A DNA stretch of 64,000 nucleotides from Escherichia coli. GTDB lineage: Bacteria > Pseudomonadota > Gammaproteobacteria > Enterobacterales > Enterobacteriaceae. The stretch lies in NCBI RefSeq assembly GCF_011045215.1, contig NZ_CP049202.1; one strand, given 5' to 3'. The stretch's first letter is position 1, and every line of letters starts with the position of its first letter. Of this stretch, positions 19,060-43,026 are shown piece by piece. Made by a program: the position numbers and the translations under genes. The notes beneath the pieces are model-generated. The model was given only the letters and a program-made list of their open reading frames with translations, made no database searches and was not told the origin of the DNA.

Positions 19060-21902
19060 AATGGTCCCTTCAGTTGATTCTTTTTCTCATCAATCATTTT
19101 TTTCACAGTCTCTTCTGATGGCTCAGGTATTATCTTTTGACTTTCTCGCTCTTCATTATATTTATTATTCTGAGATAATGCTTCTGTTTTATGGTGATTT
19201 TGTAGTTCAGAATACTGTTTTCTTACAATATTTTCCTCGCCTCGGATGCTGTTCTGAGTATCTCCGATATTACCTCGATATTCTGTGACCATATTATCAA
19301 CCTGATGTTTTACATCATCACGGATATTACTGTCCTGCGTTCTTTGATCAATAATGGCCTGATGCCCCTGATGGTCAGCAATAATATCCTGGCTGCCACC
19401 ACCCGAAGGTACGCTCTCCATTCCTTTACCAATATCGCCACGGGATTCACGCCAGGCATTATCAACACCAGGCTGTATCTGTTCCTGCACAAAAGACCAG
19501 GCCATCGCCCGACGGCGTTCTGCAATCTCCGGCGAACTGGTATTTGTCAGAATAGCTTCGGCATCCTGCGGTGCGTGTTTCATCACATACTGTGCAAACT
19601 GTTGCGACAAATCTTCACTCATCTGCCCACTCATGCTTTCAGTACGGGATGCCATTTCAGCATATTCATGGCTGCGGGTCATATTCGTCGTGTACTGGTC
19701 GTAACTCTGTTTCGCTGAGTTCAGGGCTGCAGACAGCTGGTCCACACGGGAATCGGCATTATTGTCAGTATGGCTGCCGGACTCACTGACTTTGCGACTG
19801 GTAAAGTAATCGCTGGCCTCTTTAAAGTCCTTACTGGCTTTAGCATCGATATCATGTCGAGCATCATGGGTAGCCCTGCTGCCACTACTTGCAGAATGTG
19901 AATCATCATCCGTTCGATCAAGACTTCCCTTAAATCCGCCTCTGACACCAACTCCACCACCAACCCCAAGAATTTTAGGTTTAATCCCCCATTCAGCATG
20001 AGCATCTGCATATCCGCCATACGAGAACTTAGAACCTGTTGATGCCAGTTCCTGAGTCGCCTGCTCATTACTGATATTATGCGCTTTCGCATAGCTTTCC
20101 ACTGCACTGCGCATACGGCTGGCCATCATGGAGTCCTGTGCGCTCATCGTGCTGTCAGCGCCACCGGTGACAGAATCACTGCTCCCCCGGTTAGAACCAA
20201 ACTGACTGAGCGTATTCCAGGCACTGGCAATACTGCTGCTGAACCCATGCAGGGCGCTTTCTGCTCTGTTCGATGCCTCCCGGGCCATTTCCTGTTGTGC
20301 CGCCGCAATCTGACGCGTTGCATTGATACCGACCGGTAAACGGGACATCGCTCCGCTTGCATCCATAACCATATTACCGTCACGGGTCTGTGTGGCGGTT
20401 GCGCCACTGCCGGTCTGGTACATCATCTGACCAAACGACGTGGTGCTGTTGGTGCTCCAGCTGAAGCCGTTCACGTTTTCCGTCTGCATGTTGCCGTAGG
20501 AGTAATTACCGTCAACCACACTGCCTGCTGCACTGGCCGTCGGACTGATAGATGAAGAGGCGAAGTGGCTGTACACACTGGAAAAACCTGCGCCAAGGCC
20601 TTTTACCATCATCCATGACAACGGGGGTATCATGACAGATATATATCCGGCAGTGGACGCCAGGTCGGAGTATTTCAGCTGTATCTGAGAGAGTTCAGAG
20701 AGCACGACCGGTGCACCATTCTGCTTTGCATAGAATGTCATGGCACTGTTCAGAATGGCATACAGCAACGGCCAGGTCTGGAACCACATCAGGGCAAACA
20801 CATAGCCCTTCAGTACAGACAGCGTTAACCTGTTGAAGACCGCCGCCAGTACCAGGAGCGGGAAGATACCAATGGTAATGCCCACCAGAATGGTCTGCAC
20901 CATCGGCAGGTTTCGCATCAGCACATGACCAATGGAGACATGTGCCAGACGCTGTTTCTCCATCGACGAGGTCGTGGCCAGACTGACCAGGCTGGCGGTA
21001 TCACCGTTACGGGCTGCATTACTGGTGATACCCTCTTTCAGGGCATTCATGGTGACGTTCTGGCGCATAATATGGCTGGCAGACTGGCTGGAGCCGTAGA
21101 AATAACTGTAACTGTCACTCACCAGTTGCCTGAATAACAGGTCCGGGTCCGGTCTGCCGCCAAATATCTGCTGGACATAATAATGCCAGGTCTTGCCTCC
21201 GGTATTCGTATCAAAATTCAGCTTATCCTTCAGTCCGACGGATGCGTCCTTACAGGACACAAACGGCTCTGAACTGTGCAGAAAACTGTAATTATTATTC
21301 GGCACCTGACGTAAAGGGCTGGGCTGAGAAAAGATTATGGTGTACGGGTCAGAGGAGGCCATCAGGTCTTCCAGCGTGTATTTGTGATTCAGGTAAATAT
21401 CACCCAGCACGCAGTTCTGGACGTAGTCCTGAAACAGATTGATGATTTCCGGATTCCGGGACAGAAAATCGGTGCTTTTCACAATCAGGTTCGCCCCGAA
21501 CAGCATGCCTGTCTTGCTGTAGGTGGCGCTGTCAGGCTGAGCGAACACCATCTCATAGCCGGCCACCATTGCATGCCCGATACGGGTCGTCAGTGAAAGT
21601 GGCATCGCCAGTCCGACCGGCACATTATCCACCCGATGGACTTTGACCAGGTCACTGTTATCAATAATCTGCACCGACGTGCGGACATTAACCAGCAGGC
21701 TGATAAGCACAAACACGGCCACCCAGCCCAGCAAATCCATCACGTTGTGCCGCTGTACCCATATCACGGCCACCGCGAGAACAGACAATGTGAGCGCAAT
21801 TTTTTCAATGGAATCCCACGTCCTGGTTCCCATAAAGGCGGCAATGGCGTTCAGGTTATTCCGCAACCATTCACCACCGGCAATCACATAAACTTCATTC
21901 AC
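19056..21902 (-). CDS. traG: TraG mating-pair stabilisation / entry-exclusion protein
   Basis: 948 aa with N-terminal polytopic membrane domain; position and size as F TraG. Confidence 0.9.
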   Translation of the reverse strand: MNEVYVIAGGEWLRNNLNAIAAFMGTRTWDSIEKIALTLSVLAVAVIWVQRHNVMDLLGWVAVFVLISLLVNVRTSVQIIDNSDLVKVHRVDNVPVGLAMPLSLTTRIGHAMVAGYEMVFAQPDSATYSKTGMLFGANLIVKSTDFLSRNPEIINLFQDYVQNCVLGDIYLNHKYTLEDLMASSDPYTIIFSQPSPLRQVPNNNYSFLHSSEPFVSCKDASVGLKDKLNFDTNTGGKTWHYYVQQIFGGRPDPDLLFRQLVSDSYSYFYGSSQSASHIMRQNVTMNALKEGITSNAARNGDTASLVSLATTSSMEKQRLAHVSIGHVLMRNLPMVQTILVGITIGIFPLLVLAAVFNRLTLSVLKGYVFALMWFQTWPLLYAILNSAMTFYAKQNGAPVVLSELSQIQLKYSDLASTAGYISVMIPPLSWMMVKGLGAGFSSVYSHFASSSISPTASAAGSVVDGNYSYGNMQTENVNGFSWSTNSTTSFGQMMYQTGSGATATQTRDGNMVMDASGAMSRLPVGINATRQIAAAQQEMAREASNRAESALHGFSSSIASAWNTLSQFGSNRGSSDSVTGGADSTMSAQDSMMASRMRSAVESYAKAHNISNEQATQELASTGSKFSYGGYADAHAEWGIKPKILGVGGGVGVRGGFKGSLDRTDDDSHSASSGSRATHDARHDIDAKASKDFKEASDYFTSRKVSESGSHTDNNADSRVDQLSAALNSAKQSYDQYTTNMTRSHEYAEMASRTESMSGQMSEDLSQQFAQYVMKHAPQDAEAILTNTSSPEIAERRRAMAWSFVQEQIQPGVDNAWRESRGDIGKGMESVPSGGGSQDIIADHQGHQAIIDQRTQDSNIRDDVKHQVDNMVTEYRGNIGDTQNSIRGEENIVRKQYSELQNHHKTEALSQNNKYNEERESQKIIPEPSEETVKKMIDEKKNQLKGPL

Positions 21903-23275
21903 AGCGTGCTCCCTCCGAAGTGATAGTTGTTCTGGTAACGACTGAGCATGCGGGCGGAAAGCTGCTGACGCATATAGCTCATCTGACGATCGACAACCAG
22001 CAGCGCATCCTGCTGTACCTGCACCTGTGACTGAAACGCCGCAATCTGCCGGGTGGCATCATTCATGTTGTCGTTAATATGCTCGATAACCGCTTCGTCA
22101 TAATTTCCCGTGGCCACCATCGCCCGGGCCTGCTGTATCAGCTCCTGAATGTACTGCAGCAGGATGTCGTAACCGATATAGTCCGTCAGCTGGTAAATCA
22201 TGCTGTTGGAAACACCGAGCATCTGCGGGTCAACCAGGTATTTGAAGACGGGGATGGTGGTACTGGAAATAAAGCCTTTTTCCTTGTCATCCAGAGGTGT
22301 GTCACTGACCGCCTTGTTCTGAATGCTGGCCAGAAGTTTAGTAATCTGAGACTTCAGTGCATTATCCCGGCTGATGGTCACCGGTGTGTCAGCCACCACT
22401 TTCAGGCATTTATCAGAATCGTTGCAGTGATAAATTTTTGCTGTGCCGCCTTCCATCATGGCCCGGATAATTGAGCGGTCAGTGGTTCTGGCCGACAGCG
22501 GTGTGATTTCGCCGTTGGGACCAAACACCAGTGAGCCGGTCAGCGTCATCACAAACTCTTTCAGCTCTTTGTTGCCGTCAAACATTCTGTTTTTGGAAAG
22601 CGCATTCCACATGATGTTGATGTTTTTGGTCACCCGCTCCTTATCCTTGTCGCCGGCTTTATCCCTGACGCTGTCAGATTTCCCGCCAACGGTACATCCC
22701 TGCCGGGAAGCCGCCCAGTCAGCAAAAATATTGCTCTCACCGGCAATGTCCTGACAGACTTTCTGCTGGGACACCTGCGTCCGGGGGAAAAGCCCGCCGA
22801 TAATCCCCTGTGCAGCCTGGCAGGAACTGAGGTTCATACTGTTAATGTCGCTTGCCATTTTCTGCAGGAAGTCTTTTGCAGTTTTGATTTCCGGCACCGT
22901 TGTCTGCAGGGCAAGGTCAAAAAAGTAACCGGCAGCATTGCTCATAATCTGCTTAACAAAACGCTGCAACTGCTCACCATTGATGTAACTGAACGAACCG
23001 AGATAGGCGTCAATGCCGCCACATCCGGCATTGATATCCGGCAGCGTCATGGAAATCAGCTGAACATTTTTGACCTGAGTACGGGCATACAGGGAGCCAC
23101 CGTAAGCATAGCCGGCGGCCTGCCCCTGCCAGACGCCCGGCTGTGTGGTATTGGAAGCAAACCCCAGCTTGTTAAAGAACTGATTCATGTCGCTGTTCAC
23201 ATCCGCTGACGCTGCGGGTGTGACCGTCAGTAAAGCGGCACAAAGAACCAGAAGAGGTTTAATGCGTGGCATCAT
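21899..23275 (-). CDS. traH: TraH pilus assembly protein
   Basis: 458 aa with signal peptide, same size as F TraH. Confidence 0.9.
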   Translation of the reverse strand: MMPRIKPLLVLCAALLTVTPAASADVNSDMNQFFNKLGFASNTTQPGVWQGQAAGYAYGGSLYARTQVKNVQLISMTLPDINAGCGGIDAYLGSFSYINGEQLQRFVKQIMSNAAGYFFDLALQTTVPEIKTAKDFLQKMASDINSMNLSSCQAAQGIIGGLFPRTQVSQQKVCQDIAGESNIFADWAASRQGCTVGGKSDSVRDKAGDKDKERVTKNINIMWNALSKNRMFDGNKELKEFVMTLTGSLVFGPNGEITPLSARTTDRSIIRAMMEGGTAKIYHCNDSDKCLKVVADTPVTISRDNALKSQITKLLASIQNKAVSDTPLDDKEKGFISSTTIPVFKYLVDPQMLGVSNSMIYQLTDYIGYDILLQYIQELIQQARAMVATGNYDEAVIEHINDNMNDATRQIAAFQSQVQVQQDALLVVDRQMSYMRQQLSARMLSRYQNNYHFGGSTL

Positions 23276-34026: not shown

Positions 34027-36672
34027 TTAACCCCAGTTTCCTGACATTCGTTCGCCGGACATTTCATGCTCTTTTAACCAGGCTTCCAGCGAAGCCATCT
34101 CCGGCCCTGACTTCTTCCACGCCAGCTGCCACACCGCCTCATGAATACTCAGGCCCTCTTTACGCTTCTGCTGCACAAACTCAAAATCCGGGCCGTCGGA
34201 GCTGTACATGGCACGGCTTAACGGGTCCACAAACAGACGGTGCCAGGAGGAATGGTTTTCCACCTGCAGCAGGAAGGAACTGAACCACTGGTCTTTAGCC
34301 GCACCAAACTTGCCAATCATGTCCCGCTGCAGTGGCAGGAACTGGTCCGGGAATAACTGGTTATATTTCGCGAACTCCTTCGCACTCTGTTTGAGGATAA
34401 TTTTGTAGGAGGAGTTACCCCATGCCGCACGGGCCGCACTGGAGGCCTTGTCAGAGTCAAAGTCGACGATGTTCTGTGTGATGGTGATATAGGCACCGGT
34501 ATGACGGCGACAGGTGCGGTAACCTTTTTGAATAAACTCACCGACTTTACGATTTTTGAAGTCCAGCAGACGCCAGCCTTCATCAATGACGTTCAGTTTT
34601 TTGAGAGTACGCGGCGTGCGGTACATCCTGTTCTCGATGTAGATAATCAGGGAGAACATCACCGCAACCAGCAGGGACGGACGGTCTTCCAGTCCACCCA
34701 GCTCCAGCACCACCATTCTGGCATCATCCCGCAGGGACGGTTCATCAGAGTTAAAATACCGGCCGTAAGTGCCGCCAGCGGTATATTGATCCAGAAGGAC
34801 AATCATTTCATCCAGACGGCTGCGGATGGTCGGAGACTCGACATACTGGTCGTTATCACGGGCGTTTTTCAGGAAATCCACCACATCATCGATGCGCGCC
34901 TTATTCTTTTTAGCCAGCCAGGAGGCCCTGACCGCCTGCAGCAGCAGACCTTCATGTACTTCATCCAGGTTACCGTTGGGGCTGGCCATCACCGACAACT
35001 GGTCACGGACACGCTCCGCTGACTGGTCAATATCAGTGATGTTCGCAAACGGGTTAAAACGCAGGGTTTCACCGTCCAGATATACGCCCCCCATGTTCTC
35101 ACACAGGGACTTGTAGCCATCCCCCATGTCGAACACCACGGCAAAGCCCCCGGAGTCCAGCACGCTGCGGATAAGTGGCTGTATCAGTCCGGTTTTACCG
35201 GCCCCGGAGGTGCCACAGACCGCCATGTTGTAGTTGGTGTTATTCATCCCCTTAAAGAAGATATCGATAAACGCCAGCTGGTTACGGTAGGTGGGCGCCA
35301 GCAGACCTGCCGGTGTCAGGGGATTATCCGCCACTAACGGCATCAGGTTGGCCACATTAAAACTCTCTGCCCGCTGTACCACTCCGGCCTCTTTCAGCTG
35401 TTTAAACAGCCCTTTCCCGGCCATAAAGGGCAGGCAGGTCAGGAAATTGCGCATGTGGTTAAAGCGCGGTGAAATCAGCTCAAAACCGTTTTTACGAAAG
35501 CTGTTCAGGATGTCCTGCTCCACTTCCAGTGCCGTTTCATTATTGTCCCTGCAGAAGGCTGTGATGTTGAGGAAGTAGGACACGACAGAAGACTGGCCGG
35601 AGCCCAGCCGCTGGCGCAGTTCCCCCCACTCCTTCGCCTCCTTTTCAACTGACGGAAACCATTTGGCATAGGAGGTCTTCGACTTTTTCTCCAGGTCCAT
35701 GTACTTCAGGTTGGCTTCGCTGTGGGTTTTCACCTGGTCTTCCACCACCAGAGTCAACGTCAGGATGAACGGGCAGGAAATGGACATTTCCGGGTTCAGC
35801 AGATTGCTGTAGTTGTCGGCCATGTTCCACAGGAAGGCGATTTCCGGGTTACGGGCCAGATGGAAATTCAGGATGCGGGCCGTGCTGTTCCTGCCGTTCT
35901 CACGCAGGCCCAGCGTCAGGTAATCAGCCCGGACTTTCAGGTCAAAACTGTCCTCCACACACTGATAATTCAGATCAGAATACGGATCCAGCTGACGTCT
36001 TTTCGGGTACAGAGAGTCCGGATTATGGTTAATCATCTCCCCGACAATCTCGATGAAAGCCTGTGCATCCACTGTCTGTGTGGTGATTTTTGCGCCGTGA
36101 AAAGAGGCACGGATGATTTTCACCAGATTTTCCATTTCCAGAATGTCAGCCCGGCTTTTTTTCTTCGAGGGAGAACAGTACGAGATAAACACCCGGTAAT
36201 GGCGCAGGGTCAGGGGCAGATTCATCCCCTCCGGCAGCGGGAACTGTGTCGCTGCCGCTTTCATATAATAGGCACGGGTAATGGCGTTAAACCGTTCAGC
36301 CTGTTCACCTGACCAGGAGAACTCACGCAGCCCGTATTCAATCCTGTCACCAACCAGCTGACTGGACATCAGATGGATACACAACGGAATACCGCGCGGC
36401 AGTTTGGTGCGCAGCATATGATCGAGAGCCTCCACAATGGACTCATTCGCACCATTGATGGGAATGGCTTCCAGCATAAAGCCCATCGTGGTGTCATTCA
36501 TGAACAGGCCGGACTCCTGGTTGTAATCACGGTACGGCAGCAGACGGCTGAACTGCGGGAAGCTCATCTCACCGAGGATCTGATTAGCCTGAGAGGATTC
36601 ATCCGGTAATTTAAGCGCAGTCAGCAGTGAATTAACCGCCTGAGTGACGGTCTCAAGTGGGTTTTTACTCAT
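34027..36672 (-). CDS. traC: TraC VirB4-like ATPase
   Basis: 881 aa; Walker A GTSGAGKT. Confidence 0.95.
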   Translation of the reverse strand: MSKNPLETVTQAVNSLLTALKLPDESSQANQILGEMSFPQFSRLLPYRDYNQESGLFMNDTTMGFMLEAIPINGANESIVEALDHMLRTKLPRGIPLCIHLMSSQLVGDRIEYGLREFSWSGEQAERFNAITRAYYMKAAATQFPLPEGMNLPLTLRHYRVFISYCSPSKKKSRADILEMENLVKIIRASFHGAKITTQTVDAQAFIEIVGEMINHNPDSLYPKRRQLDPYSDLNYQCVEDSFDLKVRADYLTLGLRENGRNSTARILNFHLARNPEIAFLWNMADNYSNLLNPEMSISCPFILTLTLVVEDQVKTHSEANLKYMDLEKKSKTSYAKWFPSVEKEAKEWGELRQRLGSGQSSVVSYFLNITAFCRDNNETALEVEQDILNSFRKNGFELISPRFNHMRNFLTCLPFMAGKGLFKQLKEAGVVQRAESFNVANLMPLVADNPLTPAGLLAPTYRNQLAFIDIFFKGMNNTNYNMAVCGTSGAGKTGLIQPLIRSVLDSGGFAVVFDMGDGYKSLCENMGGVYLDGETLRFNPFANITDIDQSAERVRDQLSVMASPNGNLDEVHEGLLLQAVRASWLAKKNKARIDDVVDFLKNARDNDQYVESPTIRSRLDEMIVLLDQYTAGGTYGRYFNSDEPSLRDDARMVVLELGGLEDRPSLLVAVMFSLIIYIENRMYRTPRTLKKLNVIDEGWRLLDFKNRKVGEFIQKGYRTCRRHTGAYITITQNIVDFDSDKASSAARAAWGNSSYKIILKQSAKEFAKYNQLFPDQFLPLQRDMIGKFGAAKDQWFSSFLLQVENHSSWHRLFVDPLSRAMYSSDGPDFEFVQQKRKEGLSIHEAVWQLAWKKSGPEMASLEAWLKEHEMSGERMSGNWG

Positions 36673-36798
36673 ATGAGTATTCCTTAGTGCGTTTAAAAAA
36701 GGAAAATATCAGTCTGTGGGCCGTGGATATATCACGCAGTGCCATTCTTAAAACCACAGCACAAATAAGAGATGGAGGCTTTTAACAGGAAAACAGGA

Positions 36799-37161
36799 TT
36801 AACGTTCCTTTACTGAATGAGCATCATTTAATGCCTGAAGTTGTTTTTCGCGTATCTTATTGCGCTCGTTTTCTCTTACCCGTTTCACCTCTGCCATTTC
36901 GTTTCTTTCTCTACACGCTGATGCAAGCTCTTTTGCCTTACCAAGACTTAAAGGTTCAGGCTGATAATCAGATGTGTCAGACTTAATAGCTTCCTTAAAT
37001 GCTTCTGCTGCACAGGGGGTATCCTGTGTAATCTCTGTCAGTTGTTCTGGTGTTGCAGGTTGTTGCTCAAGGTAATCATTGTAAAAAAGACCACATATCA
37101 ACATAGCCATAACACCAACAAATATAAAAGCCAGAACAGATTTTAAATATATCGACTTCAT
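36799..37161 (-). CDS. hypothetical single-TM protein (traR-traC gap)
   Basis: 120-aa ORF, hydrophobic N-terminus, charged C-terminus. Confidence 0.45.
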   Translation of the reverse strand: MKSIYLKSVLAFIFVGVMAMLICGLFYNDYLEQQPATPEQLTEITQDTPCAAEAFKEAIKSDTSDYQPEPLSLGKAKELASACRERNEMAEVKRVRENERNKIREKQLQALNDAHSVKER

Positions 37162-37406
37162 TTCATTTTAGCCTTATATAATTCCCATTGTCGGATATAC
37201 TCCTCATACTGAGCCACTGGCACATTAACGATGACTCCGGCACACTCCAGTTTATTAACCGGTTCAGTAAATGCGCCTGTCGGTATATTCACTTCCAGAA
37301 ATTTACAGTCATTTTTCCAGTATCTCCCGACATCCAGTTCATCCATCGTGAATGACTGACTGGCGAACACAACAAGCGTAATAAAAGAAAAACATCCAGT
37401 AAGCAC
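37158..37406 (-). CDS. hypothetical small protein (traR-traC gap)
   Basis: 82-aa ORF with N-terminal hydrophobic segment. Confidence 0.4.
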   Translation of the reverse strand: MLTGCFSFITLVVFASQSFTMDELDVGRYWKNDCKFLEVNIPTGAFTEPVNKLECAGVIVNVPVAQYEEYIRQWELYKAKMK

Positions 37407-37558
37407 ACTACAAACTAATATTTTTCATCTGCTGATCTGCAGACTGAATTTTTCAGGGATAACAAACATAGCCAGTAAGTTAACAACACAGATAACCACA
37501 AGAAAGAGACACAGGAATATAAACCAGTCGATATTATTTCCTTCGAAGTAGTAAGCTC

Positions 37559-37777
37559 TCATTGCCCACCACCATTCAGTGTTTCCATCACATTGTTCAA
37601 AGGTTCATTTGTTTTAACTTCAATACACTCCCCTGTATTTCCAAAGCCCCTGCCTCCATGCGCTTCGATTGTCCGAAGAACCTGCACGCATACGTCCGTA
37701 TTTGGCATGGGAGTAACATTCCAGCTTCCGCCACCGTTAATATTTTTTATCAGCACAAGAAAAATAAAGGTATGCAT
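37559..37777 (-). CDS. hypothetical small secreted protein (traR-traC gap)
   Basis: 72-aa ORF with signal-peptide-like start. Confidence 0.35.
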   Translation of the reverse strand: MHTFIFLVLIKNINGGGSWNVTPMPNTDVCVQVLRTIEAHGGRGFGNTGECIEVKTNEPLNNVMETLNGGGQ

Positions 37778-37855
37778 TCTTTATTACCTCCAGTTAAATA
37801 TTAATCACTGAATATTCATTCAGTTAACTATGAGGTCAGAAACACCGCAGATTTT

Positions 37856-38329
37856 TCATTCGGATTTACTCTCTTCAGAAAACTGCCGGATGGTATCCTG
37901 TTCACGCTGACGAGTGGCAGACTCCTGCATTGCATCCACTTTCTCCTGCCAGAGACGCCGGATATCCTTTTCATCCCGACCAGTCAGTTTTTTACCGGAC
38001 AGCAGACGGTTAAGCAGTTCCTGTCTCGCATCCGGTATGTCTTCAGTCAGACGCATAAGCTGAAGCAGGCTCTGACGGCTGAGGACCATGAGTGATTCTG
38101 GCAGGAGGGTGAAGAAGCAAATAAAACAGCATACCGCACCACTGCAGGCAAGGACCGCAAACAGGATTTTCAGATATATACCATCAACGCCGAACGCAGC
38201 AATAACACAGGGAATCCATGCAATACACGCACAAAACGCCAGGATGTTATATATTCGGTTATGTCTGCGATATATCTGTTGATGTTCATCCAGAATAAAA
38301 TCGATTTTTTCAGCTTCTGATTTATGCAT
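37856..38329 (-). CDS. hypothetical membrane protein (traR-traC gap)
   Basis: about 157 aa from internal start MHKSEAEK...; two hydrophobic helices. Confidence 0.45.
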   Translation of the reverse strand: MHKSEAEKIDFILDEHQQIYRRHNRIYNILAFCACIAWIPCVIAAFGVDGIYLKILFAVLACSGAVCCFICFFTLLPESLMVLSRQSLLQLMRLTEDIPDARQELLNRLLSGKKLTGRDEKDIRRLWQEKVDAMQESATRQREQDTIRQFSEESKSE

Positions 38330-38543
38330 AGTGTTTCCTCTGCCTTTCCTGATACGCCTGACATTCAACACATAACGTCACACCGGGAAATATTTTCCGC
38401 CGGGCTTCCGGAACAGGATTTCCGCATGCTTCACAGAGATAAACAGGAATACCATGAACATTTATTTTCTGGCGTATCCGGTTTATTCCTGTCATGGTCA
38501 GTTGTTCTGTCACTGAATATGCTTCATCGGCTTCATCACTCAC
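38322..38543 (-). CDS. traR: TraR DksA-like zinc-finger protein
   Basis: 73 aa with C4 zinc finger (CEACGNPVPEARRKIFPGVTLCVEC). Confidence 0.85.
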   Translation of the reverse strand: MSDEADEAYSVTEQLTMTGINRIRQKINVHGIPVYLCEACGNPVPEARRKIFPGVTLCVECQAYQERQRKHYA

Positions 38544-38677: not shown

Positions 38678-39193
38678 TTAATTAATACGTGGTTTTCCCC
38701 ACGCAGACGGTTTAATAACAAAAAACACACTGGATGGCTGATGATAAACATCCTGATTATCAATATAAGGCGCTATCCATAATGCTGCCGTCTGCTCACC
38801 CGTTCTTAGCGGACGGGGAGGCGTTACCGGCACAACTGAACTGACCGGAACAACCGTTTTCACTTCCCGGGCAGCGGTAAACAGCGGGCGTGGCGCCAGC
38901 AGTTTCTGCTCCGGAAGTGCCGTCACCGCAGGTCTGCTGCCGGACGGAGTGGTCGCGGTGACGGTCTGCACCGGCATTGTCCGGAAGTTCCCTTCAGCCA
39001 GGCGCGGCAGTGATGCCGCAACCGGCTTTGCTTCTGAGGACTGCTCCAGTTTTTTGGCCTTATCATTGGCCTGCTCCATCGTCATACAGGTATCGGATGT
39101 GGTGGCGTTACACTCAAATTCCGTACTGGTTCCGGCACAGCCGGAAAGTAATAAGGTCCCCAGCAGAGGAATAAATAAAGAAATCTGTTTCAT
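38678..39193 (-). CDS. traV: TraV outer-membrane lipoprotein
   Basis: 171 aa; lipobox LLSGC. Confidence 0.85.
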   Translation of the reverse strand: MKQISLFIPLLGTLLLSGCAGTSTEFECNATTSDTCMTMEQANDKAKKLEQSSEAKPVAASLPRLAEGNFRTMPVQTVTATTPSGSRPAVTALPEQKLLAPRPLFTAAREVKTVVPVSSVVPVTPPRPLRTGEQTAALWIAPYIDNQDVYHQPSSVFFVIKPSAWGKPRIN

Positions 39194-39441
39194 TGTCCCT
39201 CACCTTTCTCATCGCAGTTCACAAAATCATTCTTCAAATCCCTGACCGTACAGGTTTTTACAATGTCAGGATTTTCAAAAACCGTACTCCGTGATGATTT
39301 ATAAACATATGCCACAATGCGTTTCCCACCCGCATCAGGTTCTGGTGCACTGACTTCACATAACGGAGGTGTTATTCCGGACTCATACAGCACCGGATAA
39401 TTTATTTTTTTGACGCTGCCATCAGAAACCAGCTTATTCAT
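39190..39441 (-). CDS. trbG: TrbG-like protein
   Basis: 83 aa, same size and position as F trbG. Confidence 0.5.
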   Translation of the reverse strand: MNKLVSDGSVKKINYPVLYESGITPPLCEVSAPEPDAGGKRIVAYVYKSSRSTVFENPDIVKTCTVRDLKNDFVNCDEKGEGQ

Positions 39442-39754
39442 CGAAGGGGTCCTTATATTTCTGAATAATTCTGTCGATTAGTTCTTTCACCGGAACAGAT
39501 TTTCCGCCACCGGATTGTCCGGCAACCACAATATGCCCCGGAGAAGAAAATAAACTCATCGACATACCCTTCTTCATCACACCGACAGCAGCCATATTAA
39601 AATTGTCCGGCAATGACTCAGAACCGAATTTCTCCGGTGCAGGAAGGACGATTCTTGTGGCGCAGTTACTGAGAACAGCATGAATAAAATCATCTGACAC
39701 GGTTTTACCCGGCACAGAGAGGGCTGTAATAACATTAATATTACGCATGTTCAT
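39434..39754 (-). CDS. ORF at the trbD position with a C-terminal Walker-A-like motif
   Basis: about 106 aa from internal start; GQSGGGKS motif near the C-terminus. Confidence 0.4.
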   Translation of the reverse strand: MNMRNINVITALSVPGKTVSDDFIHAVLSNCATRIVLPAPEKFGSESLPDNFNMAAVGVMKKGMSMSLFSSPGHIVVAGQSGGGKSVPVKELIDRIIQKYKDPFDE

Positions 39755-40331
39755 TTTTATCTCCGTTGTTTCTGATTGTTCTGTCATCAGGGAAATAAAC
39801 ATGGCATTCCCTGATTTTTCCCGGCAGGGAAGTGTCTTCTGCAAGAACTTCCTTCAGACGCTCATCTGCAGTTGCCACCCGGACACATTTCATTTTTCCG
39901 GGTCGCATCGGATATTTTCCGGAGATCACCGCCAGCGAGACATACATCAGTGCCAGCGTTGCCCATAATGCGGTGAACAGTTGCATCAGAGACTAGTCAG
40001 TCTCCCTGGCATATTCTGCAGCATCCCCCCGGCGAAAACCGCACGTTACAGACGGAGGCATCGCTAAATCGGAACCAAAACTGTTCGAGCAGTATCGGAC
40101 CGGATACAGCCCGGCTGGCGTTCTGCCCCTTACAAACTCGATCTCCTGAACCAGCAATTTCCCCGGTGTGGTGTTGTCCTTCCATAAAACAAACAGAGCC
40201 ATCAGGGCCATTGTGGCCAGTGGCAGAATGACGGCGTATTTCAGACACCAGAACAGTCCTCGCAGAACCCGGGCGACAACATACCGGGCGGCATGGCCCG
40301 CCTGACGGGACGACGTATTATTTGCCATCAT
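39741..40331 (-). pseudogene. traP: traP interrupted by an in-frame amber codon
   Basis: 112-aa and 81-aa ORFs share one frame, separated by TAG at 39993..39995; total about 196 codons as F TraP. Confidence 0.6.
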
Positions 40332-41745
40332 TGCCCCCTCCCTGACTGCCGGACATAAACTGCTGCGGATTCAGGTTGCCCAGTTGCTTCAGCATCTGGT
40401 CAGTATTAAAGCCGTTAAGATGACTTTCAGCTGATGGCGGAACAGGAACCGGACTTTCCGGATTGTCTTCTTCCGCTCTGCTCTGCGTGCGTTCCAGCGC
40501 CATCTCTTCCACGGTTTTCAGCTGGAAGCCGTCCTGGAACACCACGGTCACTTCGTTGCCCGCACCAATCGGTATCACCGGGTGATACTGTTCGGCACGT
40601 TTGATGTAGTAGTCACTTAGCGTCTGTGCGGCTTTCGATGCGCCGCCACCGATACCCATTTTAAGGACATCGCCGACCCCGTAAGCAGCAGTGGCACCCA
40701 GCCCGACAGCCGGCTGGGAGGCGCGCTCCATTCCCTGACCGATACCGTCAACAAATCCCGCGCCCCATGCCCAGCCGAGGATTTTGCCGTTACGCATCAC
40801 CACTTCGCCCTTGATACCGTTTTTACCCCGGAAGCTGACATGCCCCTTAATCGGCATATCAATGGTTTTGCCGTCCTTCAGGCAGCTGATATTGCGGGTG
40901 CGTACAATGGCACGCTCACTGGACACATCCCCCCAGGCTTCCAGACCCACAAAACATCCCGTTGCGTCATACGTCTTGCTGTTCGGCATTTCCACCAGGC
41001 CGGTGATACGCAGCTGCATCGGCACCGTGGATTCATTACCGGTGACAGAGGCATTGGCATCAGCCCCTTCAATCAGCATGGCTTTCGCAAAACTTCCTGA
41101 CGGAATGTACGGCAGTGATGGTCCCTGTTTTCCCTCATTACGGGTAAACACCTTACGCTGTATCCGGTTAGGTACCGGCACAGACTGGTACGTCACCTGT
41201 GGTGGTGGCGTGACACCATTCCCGGGATAAAACGCCGTCGGCGGTGGAACAGCAACGCTGCCCTGCGGCGGGAAGGATACGGGGGTGTTTCCTGGCTGTG
41301 GTTCGCCTTCCGGGCCGGGCGGTGAGGCAGGCATCTGCGGTACAGGCTCACCGGTCGCCGTGACGGGATTAGCACCCAGGGCTTTTACCTGCTCTGCCAG
41401 GGCGGCATTGTCCTGTCCCAGCTTTTCAATACGACGCTGGTCATCACCGCGCTGTTTGTTCAGAACATCCAGCTCACGACGGATTTCCTCATACTGCTTC
41501 TGCATCTGCGCTGCCGTCACCTGCATCTCGGTGGTGGCATGCTGACGCACCTTGTCATCAAAGGTCGTATCCACCACACCGGTCATATCCGGCACAGGCT
41601 CCTGTTCAGCCACGGTTTCACCGTTACCGGACATGTCCACATCAGACAGATACAGTGCCCCACCAATCGCGGAGGCTGTACCGACAACCACAATCCCCAG
41701 CCACAGGTACTGCTTGCGTTTCACAATGGTATTGATACTGGCCAT
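40318..41745 (-). CDS. traB: TraB VirB10-like protein
   Basis: 475 aa, same length as F TraB; proline-rich linker. Confidence 0.9.
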   Translation of the reverse strand: MASINTIVKRKQYLWLGIVVVGTASAIGGALYLSDVDMSGNGETVAEQEPVPDMTGVVDTTFDDKVRQHATTEMQVTAAQMQKQYEEIRRELDVLNKQRGDDQRRIEKLGQDNAALAEQVKALGANPVTATGEPVPQMPASPPGPEGEPQPGNTPVSFPPQGSVAVPPPTAFYPGNGVTPPPQVTYQSVPVPNRIQRKVFTRNEGKQGPSLPYIPSGSFAKAMLIEGADANASVTGNESTVPMQLRITGLVEMPNSKTYDATGCFVGLEAWGDVSSERAIVRTRNISCLKDGKTIDMPIKGHVSFRGKNGIKGEVVMRNGKILGWAWGAGFVDGIGQGMERASQPAVGLGATAAYGVGDVLKMGIGGGASKAAQTLSDYYIKRAEQYHPVIPIGAGNEVTVVFQDGFQLKTVEEMALERTQSRAEEDNPESPVPVPPSAESHLNGFNTDQMLKQLGNLNPQQFMSGSQGGGNDGK

Positions 41746-42473
41746 CAGTTGCCCTCCCCGTCACGGATGACATACACATCCATGCGCGCACCTGCCAGTA
41801 ACTGGCTGGCAGGCTGGCTGAACATCACGGCACGGGTTCCCGGCTGCCAGAAGTCACTTTCCCGGATATTCAGGGCAGACAGCGTTTTATTTTCCACGGC
41901 AAAGCGGACCATCTTCAGGTGATTCCCCGTCCATACGGCATCTGCCACTGAAGACAGCCCCGCCGGGGCCTGCAGGGTTTCCTTTGTCACCGGGACCTGA
42001 TACCAGCCTGCGGGTAATTTTCCGCCACGGACGGCCTGGCTGATGGTCACAAGCAGGGATTCGTAAGGCGTGGACGTTTCCCACGCACCGGCTTCTTCTC
42101 CGGTTCCGCGCAGGTCACTGACCAGCTGAATGGTACGCCCCGCGCCTTCACGGGGAACGGCCTGAATGGAAAGATTCAGACCACGTTCTGTTTCCAGAAT
42201 GAACGTAAAGGGCTTTTTGTTGACGGTGGCAACCACCACACCGCCGGAGGCGGTCTGCTCATTATTGGTCAGGGCACCATCCAGACTGTTCACGGCGATA
42301 ATCCGGTCACCGGGAACGGTAAACAGATTCGGGCTGGTATTGCTGATGGCAATACTGGCCTGACCACCGTTCACCATTGGCACCACGGTGGGGGCCAGCG
42401 TACCGTTTGCGGCCATCACGCTGCAGGAAAAAAACAGGCTGCCGAATATTATTGCCGTATTATTTTTTCTCAT
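41745..42473 (-). CDS. traK: TraK secretin-like protein
   Basis: 242 aa with signal peptide. Confidence 0.9.
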
Positions 42474-43026
42474 CGTCTGTTTCCCCGAAATTATCCAGCC
42501 AGGTCACCCCGTTTTCCCGCTTCAGAATAAGGATGTAATGTTTGATATCAGTGAAAGGTTTTGAATCACCAATCCAGGTTTTAAGCACACCACGAATTTC
42601 CACACGGCCATACTGAGGCCAGACACGAACACTGGTCTGGAAAAAGGCTGAGTTCACGTTATCGTTTTTAATACGCTTCGCTTCTTCAGCCAGAATAACT
42701 TTCATCTGGTTCTGTGCGCCCGGACGGATATATTGCAGAAGCGCCTGATGTGAGGCATCGACGGTTTCTGATGAAACATTCAGGCGGAGGGCAATAAATG
42801 ACAGCGCCATCTGCTGTAAATAAGAGGCATCTGCACTATTCTGCGACACGGCAAAGGGGGCATTAAATGCCATTGGCGTCACGGCAGTGCGTTGCTCATT
42901 CTGAAGACGGTAGTTATTCACCCCCTGAATGACGTTAACAGAGAGGCTGAGAACAATAAGCACTGACATAAATATAAAGGCGATGGCCATTACACGACTG
43001 GTACTTAAACGGGCACCGTGTTCCAT
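42460..43026 (-). CDS. traE: TraE pilus assembly protein
   Basis: 188 aa with N-terminal TM helix. Confidence 0.9.

Follow-up and report, generated by a model that had tools for sequence, protein, structure and literature searches.

The open reading frame (ORF) at positions 39434-39754 of the analysed window, a 64,000-nucleotide stretch of Escherichia coli contig NZ_CP049202.1, is best read as an intact and ordinary 106-codon trbD gene whose product is a probable vestige of a VirB4-type ATPase with a residual, dispensable role. We put the probability of this reading as a whole at about 0.8. The gene, the 106-aa length of its product and its position are already known and are annotated in thousands of records. 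What may be new is the VirB4-vestige reading. In the searchable literature we found no account of a function for F TrbD, of its Walker-like motif, of a relationship to VirB4 or of DUF2689, and TrbD is missing from a review table of F Tra proteins published in 2020.

Identity, start site and surroundings of trbD

The original prediction described an ORF bigger than F TrbD at this position, and 106 codons followed by a stop are indeed present on the minus strand. Comparison with protein families shows this ORF to be an intact trbD of the DUF2689 family and an ordinary full-length allele. The NCBIfam TrbD equivalog model NF010282 matches the 106-aa product over its entire length (1-106/106) with 229.6-230.7 bits at a cut-off of 194, and Pfam PF10894 (DUF2689) matches it with 34.5-38.7 bits at a threshold of 25. 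The RefSeq protein WP_001057287.1, a 106-aa "conjugal transfer protein TrbD" of the E. coli plasmid pBCE049-1, is 99.1% identical to it and has the same neighbours; the two differ in one residue (E there, D102 here). Long TrbDs of the pBCE049-1 type share the length, the position between traP and trbG and the overlaps found here, whereas in the window the upstream traP is interrupted by an amber codon. A 106-aa TrbD was tabulated in 2009 as ORF091 of pEntH10407 (PMC2762410).

By tblastn coverage, at least 2,529 of the 3,912 records with a TrbD match in the plasmid collection cover 80% or more of the 106 residues; in this allele census the probe for the F junction is confounded, with long alleles matching it as two joined pieces. 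The TrbD family is narrow, comprising 211 clusters in a set of 5.8 billion proteins and 45 representatives among 1.8 billion, essentially all of them from enterobacterial F-like plasmids. The most divergent full-length relative that we found (P0150, locus L014, positions 269-607 of a 1,108-bp Logan contig of SRR33321306; E 1.5e-7) is 112 aa long and reads ...TKRSNNKGS... where other TrbDs have Walker A. Its contig is short, has a high GC content and carries no recognisable tra neighbours.

The gene lies in an F-like transfer operon that occupies the minus strand at 34-43 kb of the window, as seen from the ORF listing and NCBIfam matches:

34027-36672, minus strand: traC (ORF listing and NCBIfam)
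38322-38543, minus strand: traR (ORF listing and NCBIfam)
38678-39193, minus strand: traV (ORF listing and NCBIfam)
39190..39441, minus strand: trbG, downstream of trbD (NCBIfam NF010307, 1-83/83, 198.7 bits)
39434..39754, minus strand: trbD coding sequence, 106 codons and a TAA stop (ORF listing, sequence, NF010282, PF10894 and RefSeq identity)
39434-39844, minus strand: maximal ORF containing trbD, 136 aa, TTG start at 39844
39761..39764, minus strand: Shine-Dalgarno sequence GGAG, 6 nt upstream of the trbD ATG (39752-39754)
39741..40331, minus strand: traP, upstream of trbD (NCBIfam NF010299), split by an in-frame TAG
40318-41745, minus strand: traB, VirB10 homologue (ORF listing and NCBIfam)
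41745-42473, minus strand: traK (ORF listing and NCBIfam)
42460-43026, minus strand: traE (ORF listing and NCBIfam)

The ATG at 39754 is supported as the start of trbD translation, with a predicted product of 106 aa. The Shine-Dalgarno sequence and this ATG, in the context GGAGATAAAAATG or GAGGGTGATAAAAATG, are kept in each of the 11 loci that we compared, the pSLT-type lineage among them, and translation from this codon produces the N-terminus MNMRNINV that is typical of the family. Of the original range of 106-136 aa the lower value stands, whereas 136 aa is the length of the maximal ORF only: its TTG has not been conserved, most relatives having ATA instead. Some annotations arrive at 122 aa from an upstream ATG, a codon that reads CTG in 5 of the 10 E. 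coli-type loci; stops close the frame upstream of the trbD ATG in the pSLT lineage, and the upstream extension sits inside the traP coding frame. The conserved start thus gives a 106-aa product that includes the Walker A-like motif, rather than a product of 65 aa from which the motif is excluded.

The same observations bear on the proposal that the ORF encodes an accessory protein that is divergent or fused, is found in this plasmid alone and may have 136 aa. The existence of a 136-aa ORF opening with TTG speaks for it, as do pipelines that annotate 117-122 aa from upstream ATGs. However, the product is 99% identical to a RefSeq TrbD and is found in thousands of plasmids, other lineages have lost the upstream ATGs or have stops ahead of them, and the downstream start is universal among the loci compared. 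We regard this proposal as hardly credible. "Divergent" does not describe a standard allele, and "fused" fails relative to the TrbD family; the latter word is defensible solely in a deep evolutionary sense, as the protein contains two VirB4-like segments out of order (see below). Pipelines do disagree on the start, giving 106, 117 or 122 aa for one gene. Similarly, RefSeq gives F TrbD (locus L015, NC_002483.1, 750-947) as 63 aa from the second ATG, whereas the conserved Shine-Dalgarno sequence favours the first (65 aa).

The trbD gene is placed between traP and trbG/traV on one strand, and this gene order is the same in annotated relatives. The overlap between the traP stop and the trbD start measures 14 nt, that between the trbD stop and the trbG ATG 8 nt, and that between the trbG stop and the traV start 4 nt. 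These overlaps suggest that the four genes may be translationally coupled. Around trbD, no Rfam matches were found, and promoter-like and terminator-like sites showed no excess.

Two further features of the region concern the neighbours of trbD. In traP, an in-frame amber TAG is found at 39993-39995 on the minus strand (context ...ARETD, stop, SL MQLF...), so that positions 1-113 and 117-197 of the TraP profile NF010299 are split over two adjacent in-frame ORFs. The codon is CAG (Gln) in relatives, which implies a single C-to-T change. Over the surrounding 71 nt, 267 related plasmid records include no identical sequence, the best reaching 98.6%. The nonsense allele looks private to this plasmid, and it may weaken the coupling into trbD. 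The second feature is the gap between traC and traR (36673-38321, minus strand), which is about 1.65 kb long and contains five small ORFs of 171, 72, 45, 82 and 120 aa, none of which matches an NCBIfam model. The corresponding gap in pBCE049-1 is about 160 nt; in R100-type loci hypothetical ORFs are likewise present after traR.

The F allele and the deep lineages of trbD

The trbD of plasmid F (NC_002483.1) translates into 65 aa, MNMRN...GVMKNSEI followed by a stop, as stated in the original prediction (about 65 codons). An alignment with the TrbDs of F-like plasmids, the check proposed there, accounts for the difference in length. At the DNA level, the window and F-type alleles are separated by a single gap of 104 bp, and the flanks are otherwise almost identical:

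39466..39569, minus strand: 104-bp segment absent from trbD of F and its relatives (DNA alignment of the window, F-type and R100-type alleles)

The deletion junction of the F-type allele is 100% identical in F itself. The loss of 104 bp shifts the frame after ...GVMK, so that the protein ends in NSEI and the C-terminal third, including the P-loop, is gone. F TrbD shares the start context and neighbours of the window TrbD and is about 95-97% identical to it over residues 1-61, but lacks the FSSPG core, the P-loop and the C-terminal helix, all of which are present in the window TrbD. The segment absent from F is present in three deep lineages, namely the window type, the R100/pEG356 type and the pSLT type. 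Given that these three lineages have the segment and that F has window-type flanks, the 106-codon trbD is the ancestral form, and the 65-codon F form arose from it by the deletion. The long form is also the common one. With the textbook F plasmid carrying a truncated allele, F is a poor length reference for trbD.

The other two lineages are considerably more distant. R100/pEG356-type TrbD has 106 aa and is 67% identical to the window TrbD, and pSLT-type TrbD, annotated as DUF2689, has 78-81 aa and is 37% identical. Both share with the window protein the N-terminal motif SNCxT[RK]I and a Walker A (GHPCAGKT, GMPGAGKT), but downstream of the P-loop they carry a tail allele that has diverged deeply (dS about 0.85-1.4). 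Also, plasmids of both types have no trbG and their trbD directly adjoins traV. Where trbG is absent, as in three R100-type loci (L003, L009 and L010), TrbD ends in ...NKKGEGQ; where trbG is present, it is TrbG that ends in ...EKGEGQ. This common GEGQ-type tail is encoded by the conserved ribosome-binding region of traV, and the breakpoint between the two deep trbD alleles falls in the P-loop codons. From these comparisons, trbG looks like an insertion that arrived with a replaced trbD 3' end.

About one third of TrbD-bearing plasmids, F included, have lost the motif-bearing third or carry other truncations, and most of them are still typed as conjugative. Variants with GKC, GRKS or GKE, with frameshifts and with in-frame deletions are also in circulation. 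The frameshifted ORF of F stops 11 nt before trbG. As F is transfer-proficient and has no P-loop half, this half is dispensable for conjugation.

Resemblance of TrbD to VirB4-type ATPases

Two separate segments of TrbD resemble motifs of VirB4-type ATPases:

39629..39748, minus strand: TrbD residues 3-42, resembling the VirB4 'RK..TQSPED...TKIxLPNP' region downstream of Walker B (TIGR00929, hhalign)
39461..39544, minus strand: TrbD residues 71-98, strand, P-loop and helix, PGHIVVAGQSGGGKSVPVKELIDRIIQ (hhalign, Pfam, conservation)

Among 11 diverse TrbDs, VirB4_CagE (TIGR00929) was the most consistent NCBIfam match other than TrbD itself. Its positions 669-704 match residues 7-42 of the window protein with E 0.0011, and 9 of the 11 proteins match it (best E 4e-4). 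This part of the model lies well downstream of Walker A as placed by the F-type TraC model. TrbE, TraC and coupling-protein models gave weaker NCBIfam matches. Among ten shuffled or reversed TrbD controls, none matched VirB4_CagE; the lone control match was to an unrelated family with E 0.014. Pfam FtsK_SpoIIIE matches the C-terminal part of TrbD below threshold in 7 of the 11 members.

The two segments were then compared by hhalign with an alignment of 12 VirB4 C-terminal domains, consisting of eleven diverse MPF_T VirB4s, gathered with an IncI2 VirB4 query, and the TraC of the window:

TrbD 3-42 against positions 310-349 of the VirB4 C-terminal domain: 40 ungapped columns, probability 88%, score 39.7, P 3e-6; best of 200 column shuffles 19.7
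TrbD 71-98 against the VirB4 "(P/A)GH....G.TG.GKT" Walker A region: probability 93-95%, score 50.5, P 3e-7 to 2.5e-8; best of 200 column shuffles 20.1

Neither score was reached by any of the 200 column shuffles. The match of the N-terminal half is specific, since profiles of PilT/VirB11/DotB, of coupling proteins and of F-type TraC alone scored an insignificant 13-15 against it; that of the P-loop half is less so, with a score of 39 against PilT. When the 608 ORFs of the window were scanned blind with an HMM built from the eleven VirB4 domains, TraC excluded, TraC came first (E 3e-13) and the TrbD ORF second (E 3e-4); all others, including the P-loop proteins TraD and TraI, were not below E 1.7. 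The order of the segments in TrbD is reversed relative to VirB4, profile positions 292-330 aligning with residues 3-41 and positions 64-83 with residues 71-90.

These comparisons show that both halves of TrbD have a statistically supported local similarity to VirB4 motifs, in a permuted order as judged from the alignments. They place both segments on motifs of the C-terminal RecA-like domain of VirB4/TraC ATPases (TIGR00929). However, TrbD is about one eighth of the size of these proteins and lacks their Walker B, N-terminal domain and sensor Gln. It also falls far short of the family cut-offs, with 16-17 bits against 643 for TIGR00929 and 9.9 bits against 567 for the F-type TraC model. On this evidence TrbD is a putative VirB4/TraC fragment at most and not a member of the family.

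The likeness could in principle be due to chance or convergence, TrbD being an unrelated small protein whose ORF is kept mainly to deliver ribosomes to trbG and traV. The ATPase matches are short (28-40 residues) and all lie below curated thresholds. Pairwise Smith-Waterman alignment was too noisy on such short segments and produced a spurious match to the YggR His-box at z = 6. The chain of overlaps from traP to traV is what ribosome delivery would call for, and even the frameshifted F ORF ends close to trbG. A chance match, however, would have to arise in two independent segments, at P 3e-6 and 2.5e-8, and then single out TrbD from all ORFs of the window ahead of TraD and TraI. We consider chance or convergence unlikely, and lean towards descent of TrbD from a VirB4-type ATPase domain as the probable source of the similarity.

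Several more specific relationships were considered and rejected. The location of trbD just downstream of the VirB10 homologue traB raised the idea of a VirB11 relic, but no VirB11 model matched. As to a wider VirB11/PilT kinship, the pilT_fam model matches only the P-loop (E at least 0.089), and the N-terminal half scores 15.3 (P 0.085) against a four-sequence PilT/VirB11/DotB alignment. Direct descent from the plasmid's own traC is half supported. The best match to the P-loop half of TrbD elsewhere in the window is the TraC Walker A, whereas the TraC equivalent of the N-terminal motif (SYKIILKQS) has no detectable likeness to TrbD. Finally, the TrbD of IncP (RP4) and Ti plasmids is a VirB3 homologue and has only the name in common with F-type TrbD; reviews equate RP4 TrbD with F TraL, not F TrbD. 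No VirB3-type family appeared among the Pfam and NCBIfam matches of the window protein up to E 1.

AlphaFold2 gave no confident fold for TrbD (pLDDT of 41 and 46 with alignments of 11 and 66 sequences). An HMM search of 1.8 billion representative proteins revealed no intermediate or longer ancestor of TrbD; the long proteins matched were ankyrin, BACON, Calx-beta and UvrA, which we judged spurious, and one FtsK-family P-loop protein. Searched against PDB sequences, the profile gave generic P-loop matches only, with E of at least 0.4.

Walker A-like motif, selection and possible role

The motif GQSGGGKS, with which the ORF had been predicted to end, is encoded at 39497-39520 and corresponds to residues 79-86. 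It is thus inside the coding region and near the end of the protein, but not at it, as 20 residues follow. It conforms to Walker A, GxxxxGK[S/T], and is placed between a hydrophobic strand (HIVVAG) and a helix: HIVVAGQSGGGKSVPVKELI. G79, G84 and K85 occur without exception in 11 diverse TrbDs, the three deep lineages among them, and the motif is intact in 97 of the 114 cluster representatives that keep the FSSPG core. The window-, R100- and pSLT-type tails all retain GxxxxGK[S/T] and the ELI helix.

For a 106-aa protein of this composition, 0.0025 occurrences of the pattern G....GK[ST] are expected. Among the 608 six-frame ORFs of at least 50 aa in the window it was seen 8 times against 1.6 expected, and three of the eight occurrences, which are probably due to chance, are in unannotated out-of-frame ORFs. 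TraH (21899-23275, minus strand; NF010279, 916 bits) contains GCTVGGKS, which also fits the pattern. TraH is not known to be an ATPase, and this is probably another chance match that illustrates the weakness of the bare motif. The Walker A pattern alone is weak evidence, and its credibility in TrbD comes from its conservation and from the strand-loop-helix context.

A Walker B (a run of hhhhD/E) was found nowhere in the 106 residues of TrbD, and neither a catalytic Glu nor an Arg finger is present downstream of Walker A. A protein lacking Walker B and the catalytic Glu cannot hydrolyze ATP on its own, and autonomous ATPase activity is therefore excluded for the predicted product. No NTPase family matched above its curated threshold, the best being FtsK_SpoIIIE with 20.6 bits against 24; the other AAA, HerA and TrwB matches had E of at least 0.006.

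Selection on trbD was estimated by the Nei-Gojobori method from nine alleles, which are non-independent and recombining sequences, so that the following dN/dS ranges are to be read with this in mind:

trbD overall: 0.34-0.64
trbD residues 56-78: 0-0.29, with dS unreduced
traP: 0.33-0.66
traV: 0-0.37

Conservation of the motif extends across alleles in which the synonymous sites of the tail are saturated (dS about 0.85-1.4). A dN/dS below 1 with normal dS means that selection acts on the TrbD peptide and not just on an open frame, and this argues against retention of the ORF mainly for delivering ribosomes. Weak purifying selection together with the retained GxxxxGK[S/T] suggests that TrbD may have a residual, dispensable role.

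A stronger version of such a role would be that of an active mini-protein that binds a nucleotide (ATP or GTP) through its P-loop and modulates the hexamers of TraC or TraD, e.g. by completing or capping an ATPase interface. The presence of the motif in three deep lineages and in most cluster representatives, the low dN/dS of the residues just upstream of it and the canonical flanking strand and helix are in agreement with this possibility. Nevertheless, we find it quite doubtful. The residues required for catalysis are missing, just 20 residues follow the motif, the AlphaFold2 confidence is low, and F and roughly one third of TrbD plasmids, most of them typed as conjugative, do without the motif third or are otherwise truncated. 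Furthermore, the substitutions in the motif (GKC, GRKS, GKE) and the in-frame deletions described above circulate in natural plasmids.

The most likely explanation is that TrbD is a vestigial accessory protein: it has no Walker B and no confident fold, and F manages without its P-loop half. We propose that TrbD would be a small soluble cytoplasmic protein derived from the ATPase domain of a VirB4-type (FtsK-HerA class) type IV secretion protein. It may have originated by duplication and deletion in which two non-adjacent pieces were kept in reversed order. The first piece would correspond to the strand-helix-strand unit that follows the VirB4 Walker B, and the second to the Walker A strand, loop and helix. 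The strand order of this ATPase fold is 5-1-4-3-2. In such a sheet, the retained strands 4, 5 and then 1 with its P-loop would be three neighbouring strands of the parent sheet. In its residual role, such a protein might still bind phosphate or a nucleotide, or dock onto one of the ATPases TraC and TraD. As a combined claim, VirB4 ancestry with a retained biochemical role is rather improbable; a circularly permuted VirB4 mini-vestige with any selected, P-loop-dependent role, be it phosphate or nucleotide binding or TraC/TraD docking, is slightly less so but still unlikely.

The picture of F-type conjugation is unchanged by these findings because F transfers efficiently without the P-loop half of TrbD. 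If confirmed, however, a VirB4-type ancestry would provide an origin for an orphan tra gene of F-like plasmids, and TrbD would represent a natural case of a minimal P-loop fragment persisting under selection.
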